Shown here: piece by piece, positions 1 to 25,800 of the stretch
How positions within the stretch are numbered: the stretch's first letter is position 1
Layout of the letters: every line of letters starts with the position of its first letter
From: an uncultured bacterium
Lineage (GTDB): Bacteria; Babelota; Babeliae; Babelales; Babelaceae
Reading direction: 5' to 3'
DNA: 64,000 nt
Assembly (NCBI GenBank): GCA_963713855.1
Contig: OY970209.1
Coordinates: 480,001-544,000 of the forward strand
Translations under genes and position numbers: made by a program
The notes under the pieces: model-generated
Database searches by the model: none
What the model saw: only the letters and a program-made list of their open reading frames with translations
Told to the model about the DNA's origin: nothing

Positions 1-704
1 TTTACCAAGCCTCAACAAGCGAGCTTTATGGTAAAGTAAGAGAAGTTCCCCAAAAAGAAACAACCCCCTTTTATCCTCGATCGCCTTATGGTTGCGCTAA
101 ATTGTTTGCGTACTGGGCTACTATTAATTACAGAGAAGCATTCGGGATTTTTGCTTGTAATGGTATTTTATTTAATCACGAATCTCCTCGCCGGGGTGAA
201 AATTTTGTAACTCGAAAAATTACAAAGGCAGCTGCTGCCCGAGCATGCGGCAAAAAAGAAGTCCTTGCGATGGGAAACTTGGATTCTTCCCGAGATTGGG
301 GATACGCCGGTGACTATGTAGAAGCGATGTGGCTTATGCTTCAGCAGCCAAAGCCCGAAGACTACGTTATTGCTACAGGAAAAACCCACACAGTGCGCGA
401 ATTTATAGAAAAGACATACGAACAGATTGGCCATCCCATTGCTTGGAAAGGTCAGGGCCAAAATGAGCAAGGGGTAGATGCAAAGACCGGTGAAGTGCTA
501 GTGACTGTTGATAAGAAATATTTTAGACCAGCTGAAGTAGAGTATTTGCTTGGTGATCCTACTAAAGCTCAAAAAGCTTTGGGCTGGAAGCCAAAGACCG
601 CATTTTCTGAACTGATAAAACTCATGTTAGATTCTGACATACAAGCGGCAAAAAAGGCCTTAATCTTTGAGCTTTCTAGCAACGGTACAAAAGTAAAAAA
701 GTAA
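1..704 (+). CDS. gmd: GDP-mannose 4,6-dehydratase (5' end outside window)
   Basis: Frame open from base 3: [22 protein letters not shown] (YxxxK), [31 protein letters not shown]. The TAA stop (702-704) lies inside repeat copy 1. Confidence 0.97.
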
Positions 705-1002
705 GCCGAAGAGAAATAGGCGCCTACGCGGCGCGCGGCAGGACATTGTCCTGCACCTGTTGCTTTGTCTTGCGTGTTACATACTTATTGTATATGAGAT
801 AGACCGGAAAACCCGGTCTATCTCATTAGGCACATGTACCAGAAAGGGTAGCTCCCTTTCTGGTACATTAAACAACTATAAAAAGTTTAAGAAGGGTGTG
901 GGGCAAGGTCATAAAGCCTGAGTCCAGGCTTATGAGCCCTTTCATAAGAGTCAATACTATGACTCTTATGATGCTGCGTAGGCGTATCCTTACCTCTTAT
1001 TT
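699..1002 (+). repeat. Multi-hairpin dispersed element, copy 1 (putative structured ncRNA or non-autonomous mobile element)
   Basis: Closely similar to 16608-16909 and 24171-24447. Arms 721-732/973-984; hairpins 738-754, 794-826, 834-868, 868-890, 909-935, 942-971. Confidence 0.93.
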
Positions 1003-14469: not shown

Positions 14470-14546
<77 letters not shown>

Positions 14547-16524: not shown

Positions 16525-16607
16525 AGTCAAACTTTCAGTCCGTAGACCGCTAGCATACACCAGCTTATTCAAAATGCCAAAGGTAGGATCTAGGTAGAGT
16601 CGCTAAA

Positions 16608-16909
16608 AAGTAAGCCGAAGAGAAATAGGCGCCTACGCGGCGAGCGGCAGGACATTGTCCTGCACCTGTTGCTTGTTTTGCGTGTTCATACTTGTGTATG
16701 AGATAGACCGGAAAATCCGGTCTATCTCATTAGCACATATACCAGAAAGGGGTTCCCTTTCTAGTATATTAAACAACCATAAAAAGTTTAAACAGGGTGT
16801 GGGTCAAGGGTCATAAAGCCTGAGTCCAGGCTTATGAGCCCTTTCATAAGAGTCAATACTATGACTCTTATGATGCCGCGTAGGCGTATGCTTTTGCTGA
16901 TTTTTATTT
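16608..16909 (+). repeat. Multi-hairpin dispersed element, copy 2
   Basis: Same layout as copy 1; perfect 12-bp arms CGCCTACGCGGC (16630-16641) / GCCGCGTAGGCG (16875-16886); lies between divergent genes. Confidence 0.93.
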
Positions 16910-17009
16910 GGGGACATAGCCTAGGGCATTTTTGCTCTACGTCTCGCTATTTTTCAAAAGAATTTTATACTTATGCTTGCATAGTTTTTCTTTAAAATTT
17001 GGTAATCAT

Positions 17010-22875: not shown

Positions 22876-24156
22876 ATGATGGTATATCGATTTCTTCTAA
22901 CACTCGGTTTAGGTATTAGTGTTCTTAGTATAAATGGAAGCGTACCTAACAATCTATTCAATCCATATGACATCCTTTTATATAAACCGTTTTCGGCAGA
23001 AGAGCGTTTTGAATTTGGTGTTGTGTATGAAGGAGCTTTTAGGTCATTTGGTTTTCAGACCGATCCTGATGATAGAATCGTTGAAGACACGACTGGTGAT
23101 GCGAACCTGTTTCGAAGACCTGTTACACCTATGCAGCTTTGGCACGATAGTCAGAATTTTTGTGCCGCACTTTCTGGAGCAAGCCCTGATTCAGCTTTTG
23201 CGTCACATGCAAGCCTTCTTAACATCAAGGGCCAGCGCGTAGAATGTAACCTAAACATTGGAGCTCAGGTTTCTATACCCGTCAACTTGATGCTATCAGC
23301 GCGCTTTGCCCTTCCTTATAACCTTATTTTTGCCTTCTATGTTCCCGTTTTAAAGATAGGTGTTAAAAACATTCAATGGTCGCATAAACGGAAAGATACA
23401 ACGAGTTTTACCTCGCGATTGGATGAGGACTTTTTAAATACCACTGAGACATTGAGTAACAAGAACTTCCGGCAAGGATGGGAGCGATTTGGTCTTGGTG
23501 ATTGCTCCGCGGTTGTATGGTGGTCCCGCTACTACCGTCAATACAAGCCACTGCTTAAGGGAGTTACCGTACACGTGCGGGGAGGAACTGTTTTTCCAAC
23601 TGGCTCCAAAGCCCACGAAGACATCGTATTTGATATTCCTTTTGGTCACGGTCAGGGATTTGGTGTCCTTTTTGGCGGCACTTTGGAACTTTCTTTAGGT
23701 CATTATTGTAAGTTCGGTATCGATGGCGAGTTTTCCCATTTTCTGGGATCTTCTGGAAAGCGTCGCTTACAAACAAATCGCCTTCAAACAAACCTTCTTC
23801 TTTTTCAAAGCGGGCATGCTCACGTTGATCCAGGCCTATTACAGCATTATACGCTCTACCTTACAATGGGCGCCTGGAATGGCCTTTCAACAACCATTTC
23901 TTATCAGCACAGTCGTCAGCATGAAACAATGATTACGCCTTCAAGTCCCCATTTTGATGCTAAACTCATTAATGACGATGAAACCATCCAAAACTGGACT
24001 ACGCATAGCATTGTTTGGTTCTTAAACTATGATCCACCAGGCTGGGAAGACTGTGCATATTTACCGCGGCTTTCAGCATTTGTTAAAAATGGATTTAACG
24101 GTAAACGTGCGCTGCTTTTTGATACAGCCGGTGTTCAGGTCGCTCTAGGTTATTAG
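22876..24156 (+). CDS. Exported hypothetical protein, possible outer-membrane beta-barrel
   Basis: Signal peptide, amphipathic strand patterns, aromatic C-terminal residue (GVQVALGY). Confidence 0.65.
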   Translation: MMVYRFLLTLGLGISVLSINGSVPNNLFNPYDILLYKPFSAEERFEFGVVYEGAFRSFGFQTDPDDRIVEDTTGDANLFRRPVTPMQLWHDSQNFCAALSGASPDSAFASHASLLNIKGQRVECNLNIGAQVSIPVNLMLSARFALPYNLIFAFYVPVLKIGVKNIQWSHKRKDTTSFTSRLDEDFLNTTETLSNKNFRQGWERFGLGDCSAVVWWSRYYRQYKPLLKGVTVHVRGGTVFPTGSKAHEDIVFDIPFGHGQGFGVLFGGTLELSLGHYCKFGIDGEFSHFLGSSGKRRLQTNRLQTNLLLFQSGHAHVDPGLLQHYTLYLTMGAWNGLSTTISYQHSRQHETMITPSSPHFDAKLINDDETIQNWTTHSIVWFLNYDPPGWEDCAYLPRLSAFVKNGFNGKRALLFDTAGVQVALGY

Positions 24157-24170
24157 GTGCTATTCTAAAC

Positions 24171-24447
24171 AAGTAAGCCAAAGAGAAATAGGCGACTACG
24201 CGTCGAGCGGCAGGACATTGTCCTGCACCTGTTACTTGTTTTGCTTCTTACATACTTATAGTGTATGAGATAGACCGGAAAACCGGTCTATCTCATAGGC
24301 ACATATACTAGAAAGGGAACCCCTTTCTGGTATATTAAACCTTCATAAAAAGTTTAAGAAGGTGTGGGTCAAGGTCATAAAGCCTGAGTCCAGGCTTATG
24401 AGCCCTTGCGCCCGCCGCGCAGGCGTACGTTTCCCCTGTTTTTATTT
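24171..24447 (+). repeat. Multi-hairpin dispersed element, copy 3 (lacks the last hairpin)
   Basis: Same layout; the hairpin seen at 942-971 is replaced by GCGCCC (24408-24413); lies between convergent genes. Confidence 0.92.
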
Positions 24448-24453
24448 AAGGAC

Positions 24454-25800
24454 CTAGAATACAGAAAGAAGCTCATGTACGTTGTAAAAAGTGCGTACTG
24501 TGCACGAGGTGTGTTCTATTTTTTGATTTTTGGCAACAAAAATTTGCTCGATGCCAAATTTTTCAGCTTCGCTAATATGCAGATTGATTGCGTTAATCGG
24601 CTTAATGTGACCGGTCAAACTTATTTCTCCTAAAGCGAGCGTTTTACGTGGCAGAGTTTGTTGAAAGAAGCTCGAAAGCAGCGCAAGAGCGATTGCAAGA
24701 TCCGCGGAGCTTTCTCTTAGTTTAAAGCCGCCGCTAATTTTAAAAAATATGTCATTGGCACTCATTTTAATTTGAAGATATTTTTCGAGTATTGCGGCTA
24801 AAAGGGTAATTGAAGTAGTATCCATGCCCGATACGACCCGTTGAGGCATGCCATACTTCGATGCAATAACAAGCGCCTGAAGCTCTAAAAGAAGTGGCCG
24901 CGTACCTTCAAGAGAACTGGTAAGAACAGATCCCGGACTATCCGATATCTCTTCAAGAAGCTGCTGGTTAATGTTGGGCACTTCACGAAGCCCGTCTTCT
25001 CGCATTTCAAAAAAACCTAATTCATTAACGGTACCAAATCTATTTTTTACAGAGCGTAAAACACGGGTTTGCCAGCGGTCCTCACCCTGCAAGTAAAATA
25101 CCGCATCTACCATGTGCTCAAGCGTTTTTGGCCCGGCCATTAGTCCCTCTTTGGTAATATGGCCTGTTAATAAAACCGCAATTGTGTTTTCTTTGGCTAG
25201 TCGCATAAGTCGAAAAGCTGCTTCTTTCAATTGCCCAATGCTTCCAGGCAATGTTTGAGAATCTGTCAAATAACAGTTTTGTATCGAATCGATAATAACA
25301 AGGGCTGGTTTTTCCGCTTGAGCGGTCGCGATAATGTCTTCAAGATTCGCATTGTCAGAAAAAAAGATCGGGCTCGGCACGCATCCTAACCGTTTAGCTC
25401 GTACCTTGACCTGCTCTAATGACTCTTCGGTTGAAAAATAAAGCAGCGAATAATGTTGTGAAAGCTCGTGAGCTATGCGTAGGAGTAATGTCGATTTTCC
25501 AATGCCCGGGTCCCCCGTCAGAATGGTAAATGAGCCAGGTAAAATACCACCGCCCGTGATTCGGTCCCATTCTTTTATGCCAGAGGTCATTCTTGGCAAG
25601 GTTTCCTCAGACAGCGTTTCAAGCTGTGTCAGAGTGGCCTTGCGTGCATGTACTTTCTTCAAAGCACTTACTTCGTGGCGCTCTTGTGTGAATGAGTTCC
25701 ATTCTTTACATGTAGGACAACACCCCATCCATTTAAAAGTCGTATATCCGCATGAGACGCACAAAAATGATTGCTTATTTTTAGGAGAAGTTTTAAGCAT
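24454..25800 (-). CDS. radA: DNA repair protein RadA/Sms
   Basis: Zinc finger C..CG...KWMG.CP.C, GDPGIGKSTL, IDSIQ, KNRFG, Lon-like C-domain. Start placed at MLKTSPK. Confidence 0.97.
   Translation of the reverse strand: MLKTSPKNKQSFLCVSCGYTTFKWMGCCPTCKEWNSFTQERHEVSALKKVHARKATLTQLETLSEETLPRMTSGIKEWDRITGGGILPGSFTILTGDPGIGKSTLLLRIAHELSQHYSLLYFSTEESLEQVKVRAKRLGCVPSPIFFSDNANLEDIIATAQAEKPALVIIDSIQNCYLTDSQTLPGSIGQLKEAAFRLMRLAKENTIAVLLTGHITKEGLMAGPKTLEHMVDAVFYLQGEDRWQTRVLRSVKNRFGTVNELGFFEMREDGLREVPNINQQLLEEISDSPGSVLTSSLEGTRPLLLELQALVIASKYGMPQRVVSGMDTTSITLLAAILEKYLQIKMSANDIFFKISGGFKLRESSADLAIALALLSSFFQQTLPRKTLALGEISLTGHIKPINAINLHISEAEKFGIEQIFVAKNQKIEHTSCTVRTFYNVHELLSVF

Follow-up and report, generated by a model that had tools for sequence, protein, structure and literature searches.

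A mosaic palindromic repeat family with long hairpin-bearing inverted ends, probably a fossil mobile element, in a Dependentiae genome

The repetitive extragenic palindromic (REP) sequences and bacterial interspersed mosaic elements (BIMEs) of enterobacteria, together with the REPINs of Pseudomonas, which are mobilised by the REP-associated tyrosine transposase (RAYT), a Y1 HUH gene that is itself flanked by repeats, are among the closest described systems to the element reported here. Another is RUP, which is derived from IS630 and has a TA/CTAG-type junction. Here, we describe a hairpin-rich repeat with a junction like that of RUP, three copies of which lie in a 64,000-nucleotide stretch of DNA (hereafter, the window) from an uncultured bacterium of the family Babelaceae (Dependentiae). 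The window comprises bases 480001-544000 of the source genome (G000), which is a single 1,521,901-bp contig with 41.4% G+C. A first-pass annotation of the window had noticed the three copies and proposed either a new structured RNA or a non-autonomous mobile element mobilised in trans. As described below, the element is probably a non-autonomous mosaic palindromic mobile repeat, similar to MITEs (transposable elements of the miniature inverted-repeat type) but with a BIME-like modular interior, which survives as a fossil in the source genome.

Compared with REP, BIME and REPIN sequences, the element has several features in common, including mosaic palindromic units in alternating orientation with variable linkers, an extragenic position often 3' of genes, a CTAC/GTAG motif in the units, and stems retained by paired changes. 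In contrast to them, it is a bounded element of ~300 bp whose outer ends are inverted and whose junctions mostly read YTAR, its GTAG lies inside the loop of a mini-hairpin rather than 5' of a short GC-rich palindrome, and its genome is without RAYT or other Y1 genes. Prokaryotic MITEs, as reviewed (PMC10969869), are shorter than 500 bp, lack a transposase gene, and have inverted ends of ~4-30 bp and flanking direct repeats. Examples such as Correia (Neisseria), RUP (Streptococcus pneumoniae) and QMITE1/2 (Coxiella burnetii) share with the present element a length below 500 bp, the lack of coding sequence, inverted ends, dozens of diverged or truncated intergenic copies and very stable predicted folds, and the QMITEs also share a host with a small, intracellular-type genome. 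Unlike these MITEs, the present element has hairpin-bearing ends of ~50 nt, an interior of five or six independent and exchangeable hairpins, and a core found in both orientations, and neither the source genome nor that of a sister species (G001) yielded a parent insertion sequence that has the same ends.

The three copies noticed in the first-pass annotation, at 699-1002, 16608-16909 and 24171-24447, are all genuine, each starting with AAGTAAG and ending with YTTATTT, and they align at 86% mean column identity. However, they are only part of the family. When copy 1 (304-nt query) was compared with the source genome by BLAST, 56 matches were obtained and grouped into 21 loci (labelled c followed by a number), 20 of which retain both of the sequences that had been described as arms, c578155 being a partial locus. 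The pairwise identity among these copies over shared columns is 69-96% (median 86%), and none of them is young. Although the starts and ends given in the annotation are present, the true ends lie further out: in an alignment of the copies with their flanks and in an end-anchored listing, homology extends ~20 nt past these limits on either side, which gives full extents of about 680-1022, 16590-16924 and 24153-24457 in the window and a full-copy size of 305-345 bp. Each element has one end of type A and one of type B, which are imperfect inverted copies of ~50 nt. Read inwards, end A is approximately CTAG-GTAGAGTCCCTAAATAGTAAGCCAAAGAGAAATAGG and end B is CTAG-GTTCTGTCCCCAAATAAAAATCAGGGAAGnATA, each followed by CGCCTACGCGGCG; both consist of an outer AT/purine-rich part followed inwards by a 13-nt mini-hairpin, and a lead hairpin with a short tail is added on one side. 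At the junctions, read by eye from the alignments, YTAR is present on the A side in 14 of 20 copies and on the B side in 14 of 20, with the outermost four bases being mostly CTAG or TTAG at the left and CTAG or CTAA at the right. The variation at the junctions lies at the outermost base on both sides, and a TA duplication in an xTAy target therefore fits better than a 4-bp duplication. The earlier statement that there was no target-site duplication can be traced to ends that had been set ~20 nt too far inward.

The element is intergenic in its placement. With a gene list of crude longest open reading frame (ORF) calls (1352 ORFs), all 21 copies fall between genes, 11 of them between convergent, five between tandem and five between divergent gene pairs. 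Convergent spaces make up 255 of the 1351 intergenic spaces (18.9%) by the same crude calls, so that 11 of 21 copies is an enrichment (binomial p = 5.8e-4). The copies are also without a transposase gene or a conserved ORF. Their longest stop-free runs measure 42-87 codons per copy, stops occur in all three frames at the A end (read from the end listing), and the one frame that recurs runs uninterrupted through just 2 of 20 copies by our reading of the translations and has no match in Pfam, in agreement with the initial observation that no ORF is shared. At 305-345 bp and without such genes, the copies resemble MITEs in size and content.

The interior of the element is modular and is found in both orientations. 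Relative to the ends, the core is arranged as A..B' in 13 of 20 copies and as B..A' in 7 of 20, and the partial copy c578155 resembles the latter form by eye. Recombination between the element's own inverted repeats would be the simplest cause of this inversion. Four copies have an insertion of ~70-80 nt, with two extra hairpins, inside the loop of the lead hairpin, and shortened forms of hairpin 5 occur in some copies of the alignment. The organisation of these parts can be followed in copy 1, which occupies 680-1022 on the plus strand between the convergent genes gmd (ending at 704) and glyA (stop codon at 1007-1009). Both outer ends of the copy are degenerate and reach into the final codons of these two genes, which were identified by Pfam. 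The outer left end, of type A (680-720), is purine-rich near the arm and contains stop codons, including the TAA of gmd at 702-704, and it is followed by the left mini-hairpin CGCC-TACGC-GGCG (721-733, CGCCTACGCGGCG). Next come the lead hairpin GCAGGAC-ATT-GTCCTGC (738-754) with its tail ACCTGT, a module (738-760) that is common to repeats of other phyla, and a T-rich unpaired linker (761-793) with the motif TTACATACTTAT, which is retained in the sister species too. The remaining interior consists of hairpin 2 with a 14-bp stem (794-826), hairpin 3 with a 15-bp stem (834-868), which has the most compensatory changes of all helices (8 of 15 pairs), hairpin 4 with TAAAC/GTTTA and an 11-nt loop (869-889), hairpin 5, TCATAAAGCCTG-AGTC-CAGGCTTATGA (909-935), for which shorter variants substitute in other copies, and hairpin 6, TCATAAGAGTCA.., with a 12-bp stem (942-971), an optional module that 9 of 20 copies have in this position and two copies have at the left. 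The right mini-hairpin (CGCCGCGTAGGCG, 972-984) and the outer right end of type B' (985-1022), which is pyrimidine/T-rich and degenerate, complete the copy. Copy 2 (16590-16924, plus strand) has CTAG at 16590-16593 and at 16921-16924, and copy 3 (24153-24457, plus strand), which is without hairpin 6, in line with the smaller span given for it in the annotation, has TTAG at its left junction and CTAG at its right.

All of the hairpins listed in the first-pass annotation were thus found in copy 1, but its view of CGCCTACGCGGCG and CGCCGCGTAGGCG as enclosing arms is not borne out, each being a hairpin of its own with a 4-bp stem and the loop TACGC. Covariation backs the local pairing and not the long-range one. 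In the copies of the source genome, 72 pairs within local hairpins were counted, with 93.8% of cells paired, and changes on both sides were found in 13 of these pairs. In 500 shuffles the number was 4.5 +/- 1.3 and never reached 13, and slid controls gave at most 5. Long-range pairing of the arms (12 pairs) showed no covariation above shuffles, 200 of 500 being as high, and it was rejected. For example, c65352 and c504171 have a left arm of CGAC..GTCG and an unaltered right arm, so that the local hairpin is intact whereas the long-range pairing is lost.

The distribution among relatives is patchy. When 40 relatives were searched by BLAST, only the sister species G001 was matched, and the similarity was weak (5 matches, best E 6.6e-6). 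A diverged family of its own is present in G001, with 43 BLAST matches to one of its copies and 73-97% identity among copies, and a covariance model made from 14 copies of the source genome gave 66 matches there (best E 3.2e-13). Its parts follow the same order as in the source genome, namely one to four mini-hairpins, the lead hairpin with its tail, a linker rich in T that includes TTACATGCTTAT, a 14-bp hairpin and more hairpins, although the stems differ in sequence, and its elements are composed of two such halves face to face, ~290-420 bp in total. When 261 genomes of the phylum were scanned, the exact module pattern turned up in just 4, with 12 occurrences in G000, 8 in G001, 7 in G056 and 1 in G192, and a reversed-pattern control gave none in any genome. 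Gene order is heavily rearranged between G000 and G001, and the flanking proteins are 35-88% identical. At two loci, c160351 and c561486, the genes on either side lie next to each other in G001, and the spacers between them are short (~245 and 203 bp) and without the element; at c561486, similarity can still be recognised in the promoter-proximal part of the spacer. The search for empty sites proposed in the annotation therefore gave two orthologous intergenic sites without the element, and together with the occurrence in 4 of 261 genomes, a presence/absence difference between relatives is seen at the level of species. An element is also found just 3' of the glyA orthologue in G001, as copy 1 is in G000, in the opposite orientation.

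Taken together, these results support a history in which a transposase acting in trans would once have dispersed the copies. Insertion would most likely have occurred at the TA of YTAR/CTAG sites, in an IS630/Tc1-like manner with duplication of the TA, often at the stop codons of genes. The enzyme would since have been lost from the source genome, and the 21 copies, at 69-96% pairwise identity, would thus be fossils that no longer move there. Those that survive would be chiefly those inserted where they were least harmful, between gene ends, and recombination between their own inverted repeats could later have reshuffled them by inversion of the core and by gain or loss of modules. The MITE/REPIN-like alternative of the first-pass annotation is consequently favoured by the inverted ends, the CTAG-type junctions, the intergenic and modular nature of the copies, their restriction to 4 of 261 genomes and the empty sites in the sister species, although a matching transposase was not found. 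Its suggestion of an undescribed system was too strong, since the family, although new, belongs to a familiar class of elements.

Several points weigh against this interpretation. A 4-bp duplication has disagreeing sides in 5 of 10 copies compared by eye, and CTAG is palindromic, which makes a duplication indistinguishable from the tip of the inverted repeat. The inverted ends of ~50 nt exceed the ~4-30 bp given for prokaryotic MITEs (PMC10969869), and the internal hairpins retain double changes (13 compared with 4.5 +/- 1.3) beyond the needs of a transposase that reads the ends alone. Exact empty sites were not obtained, since the flanks have no paralogues in G000 and G001, with the protein identities given above, is too distant. 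Moreover, no autonomous partner was found: the source genome has no match to Y1_Tnp (PF01797), DDE_Tnp_1 (PF01609), DDE_3 (PF13358), rve (PF00665), IS110 (PF01548) or RVT_1 (PF00078), with the Y1_Tnp search being performed at E <= 0.01 and its control being positive in 6 of 14 known genomes. The insertion sequences of G001 (IS630-like, ISAs1-like and IS200-like Y1) end differently from the element. Its IS630-like element has four intact copies with the terminal inverted repeat TAGACATCACA.. and a TA duplication in CTAG-like sites, and its ISAs1-like element (DDE_Tnp_1 and DDE_Tnp_1_assoc) has seven copies with the terminal inverted repeat CAGGGCCGGCTCA and 9-10-bp duplications (e.g., C2 1023278-1024474, or L312:3278-4474). 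In addition, G001 has IS200-like Y1 genes, one IS110-type gene and one reverse transcriptase. Likewise, a longer copy enclosing or flanking a transposase-type ORF, for which the annotation had suggested looking, was not found among the pairs of inverted lead hairpins in G001. One candidate, a 2.9-kb pair of inverted lead hairpins enclosing genes in G001, was rejected because by eye it consists of two separate elements that flank ABC-transporter-like and membrane ORFs rather than an autonomous element.

The question of whether the copies are primarily functional RNAs, i.e., two-way terminators acting in cis, RNA-stabilising elements in 3' untranslated regions or small RNA genes selected on RNA folding, also has to be considered. 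The fold of copy 1 as RNA is highly stable, at -147.7 kcal/mol compared with -90.8 +/- 5.4 in 100 dinucleotide shuffles (z -10.6), but the opposite strand folds nearly equally (-140.8, z -9.8), as a chain of near-perfect palindromes would be expected to do. Besides the compensatory changes in the source genome, G001 showed double changes in every one of its 40 modelled pairs (331 cells, compared with no more than 58 in slid controls), with a model-fitted alignment that leans to structure, and stem columns are less variable than unpaired ones (0.082 vs 0.114, Mann-Whitney p = 0.003). Among the single changes in hairpins 2-4, however, G.T on the plus strand (10) is balanced by A.C (8), which is G.T on the minus strand, so that pairing is preserved and yet no single transcribed strand is indicated. 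The enrichment between convergent genes would suit a terminator, and a simple terminator scan picked up an outward-facing mini-hairpin followed by a T-rich run at each end (minus strand 734-720 and plus strand 16873-16887), with one terminator-like site in each of the two scanned regions compared with an average of 0.5-0.6 in shuffles. Against such a role, the neighbouring genes diverge at 5 of 21 copies, 7 of 20 have an inverted core, a scan of copy 1 gave no promoter-like site, and only 4 of 261 genomes of the phylum carry the module. The impression in the annotation that the element matches no recognised RNA family was confirmed. In Rfam 15, the only match of the whole window at the gathering score was one tRNA gene, the best match of copy 1 at E up to 10 reached 24 bits where the family gathering score is 72, and tRNA was the sole match among 20 related loci of other genomes. 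The preserved pairing could reflect selection on folded single strands, either DNA or RNA, or alternatively template-switch correction in palindromes. Template switching is a known mutational route by which double changes arise in quasi-palindromes without selection, and the double changes of the present palindromes may thus be explained without an RNA function. We therefore regard a structured RNA as an improbable primary identity of the element, and a secondary role as a putative two-way terminator or RNA-stabilising structure as possible.

Another explanation, which we consider unlikely while giving it somewhat more weight, is that the element is of the REPIN/BIME type and moved as single-stranded DNA. 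The hairpins, namely the CTAC/GTAG mini-hairpin and the lead hairpin with its tail, would then be recognised by an HUH tyrosine transposase (RAYT-like, IS200-like or a relative), there would be no duplication, and CTAG would be the cleavage or target motif. The hairpin units do appear in either orientation and in differing numbers, with the mini-hairpin forming tandem arrays in G001 and G056, and the mini-hairpin stems covary (CGCC/GGCG, CGAC/GTCG, CGCT/AGCG and CACC/GGTG). At least four variants of the lead stem exist with tails that change with the stem, such as GAC..ACCTGT, GGC..ACCCAy and AAGC..ACTTGT, which recalls the base-paired guide and cleavage sites of IS608. Units of GTAG plus a palindrome are also seen in repeats of Verrucomicrobiota metagenome-assembled genomes (MAGs), Y1 genes are present in G001, and the source genome has TnpB relics that would once have needed such an enzyme. 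Nevertheless, Y1_Tnp has no match in G000 or in the motif-rich genomes G043 and G044, the Y1 loci of G001, G041 and G042 have no element modules in their flanks, and the long inverted ends with YTAR at both junctions seen here are not known from IS200/IS605-type elements. Two Verrucomicrobiota genomes have RAYT-like genes, which are flanked by their own, different repeats. The TnpB-like (Cas12f1-like_TNB) loci of the source genome number three, at 557315-558541 (-), 812991-813137 (+) and 1386662-1386862 (+), of which one is a 408-aa ORF, one is shorter and one is broken by stops; all lie outside the window, in a genome without a Y1 TnpA, and the element has no match to them at E <= 1e-3 with a word size of 9. 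Accordingly, the IS200/IS605-derived palindrome-associated transposable elements, which have asymmetric ends and kinship with the ends of TnpA/TnpB elements, differ from the present element with its inverted ends. Two of the three TnpB-like loci are within ~4 kb of element copies (c561486 and c808986), which may be chance. An attC-like reading, in which GCCTAC..GTAGGC is compared with GCCTAAC..GTTAGGC, was rejected on the grounds of housekeeping neighbours in both orientations and the lack of a cassette array. Neither these comparisons nor those with RNA displace the trans-mobilised, MITE-like repeat as the probable identity of the element.

The terminal module of this repeat is also found far beyond the phylum. 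Scanning of one genome per species for the lead hairpin and tail gave at least 114 stretches, 80 of which are listed. Among these 80 matches listed, two Clostridia-labelled MAGs contribute 16 and 13 loci, three labelled Verrucomicrobiota contribute 11, 8 and 8, and an 'uncultured bacterium' record contributes 5, and 19 are single, mostly coding and chance-like matches. In the multi-copy genomes, the lead hairpin heads stacks of other GC-rich hairpins, often with CTAG or TAG just outside. In metagenomes, 35 contigs contain the point where mini-hairpin and lead hairpin join, many of them with high GC, where a purine-rich ..GAAT precedes the module, and one of the contigs (L211) has a 223-bp element with the module inverted at both ends. 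The variants of the lead stem, GAC, GAGC, GGC and AAGC, are followed by the tails ACCTGT, ACCTGT, ACCCAy and ACTTGT, respectively, in keeping with the stem. In contrast to the module, hairpin 2, which is specific to the source genome, gave 0 matches in the metagenome scan. Two module patterns gave 1 and 0 matches in viral contigs, the plasmid collection gave 0 matches for the element of the source genome and for the high-GC element, and no ORF recurs beside the module at the 80 loci of other genomes. It is conceivable, though we think rather unlikely, that the module (purine tract, CGCC-TAYGC-GGCG, and GCAGG..CCTGC with a tail covarying with the stem) docks a novel enzyme that reads folded single strands and is neither RAYT nor IS200 TnpA. 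The element would then belong to a cross-phylum class of modular mobile DNA (Dependentiae, Verrucomicrobiota, Clostridia-labelled MAGs and high-GC soil bacteria) with new transposition chemistry.

The element is unusual in its long hairpin-bearing ends, the inversion of its core, the strong preservation of its stems, and a cross-phylum terminal module without a known partner enzyme. Further likenesses are found among other repeats. The Rickettsia palindromic elements are likewise palindromic repeats that spread in a reduced intracellular genome, but they are often in frame within genes, unlike the present copies, which are intergenic in 21 of 21 cases and carry stops in three frames at the A end. 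With BOX and SPRITE of Streptococcus pneumoniae (PMC10969869), the element shares optional boxes, nested insertion and terminator-like hairpins; it differs in that the host is of another phylum and nearly all of its modules are perfect hairpins, and in this comparison, made by description, no sequence relation was seen. Among the papers listed by our literature search, there was no account of such elements in Dependentiae, and six 13-nt motif strings retrieved only unrelated papers on eukaryotes. If our interpretation is correct, a well-delimited family of miniature mobile repeats can be added to Dependentiae, and a reduced genome can retain dozens of fossil elements after the loss of all tested transposases. 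The shared terminal hairpin module would provide a 40-nt motif as a handle for finding the enzyme that moves hairpin stacks, and the family could be a useful test case for separating selection on structure from the self-correcting mutation of palindromes.

With respect to the neighbouring genes in the window, identified by Pfam, copy 1 lies between gmd and glyA, copy 2 between the divergent comM-like gene and an unknown 983-aa ORF, and copy 3 between an unknown ORF and a radA-like gene. Several neighbouring genes terminate within the elements, as gmd does with its stop codon at 702-704; at copy 3, the convergent radA-like gene, which is on the minus strand, takes its stop codon from the CTA at the right junction. 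The tRNA gene, the single Rfam match in the window, is at 14473-14546 on the minus strand (64.7 bits). In G001, two elements (G001:C2 23599 and 26526) are directly beside tRNA-like sequence and bracket ABC-transporter-like ORFs, both as read by eye, a hint that tRNA gene ends may be favoured.

Other observations were made during the searches. In G056 (locus L331, upstream of 1500), a tandem array of at least five 25-nt mini-hairpin units (CGCCTACGCGGCGAGCGATACCTAC) is present. A separate repeat that shares the mini-hairpin junction was found in metagenome contigs of 45-51% GC (L213, L216, L220, L222, L223, L225, L227, L232, L235, L240 and L243). Upstream it has ~70 nt of conserved AT-rich sequence, downstream it has other hairpins, and inspection by eye of the two of these loci with ORF listings revealed no transposase-like ORF. 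The load of live insertion sequences differs sharply between the two sister species, the source genome being without the ISAs1-like and IS630-like elements of G001. A 418-aa ORF in which RRXRR and HNH domains occur is also present twice in G001, at G001:C1:291693-292946 (-) and C2:1160181-1161506 (+), and it looks IscB-like. Finally, multi-copy ORFs with weak pretoxin-HINT matches and other ORFs with CdiI-type immunity matches occur in G001, for example at G001:C2 418670-419911, 1088607-1089860, 345794-346579 and 1241953-1242702, and they adjoin very long repeated ORFs, which suggests loci of the polymorphic-toxin type.

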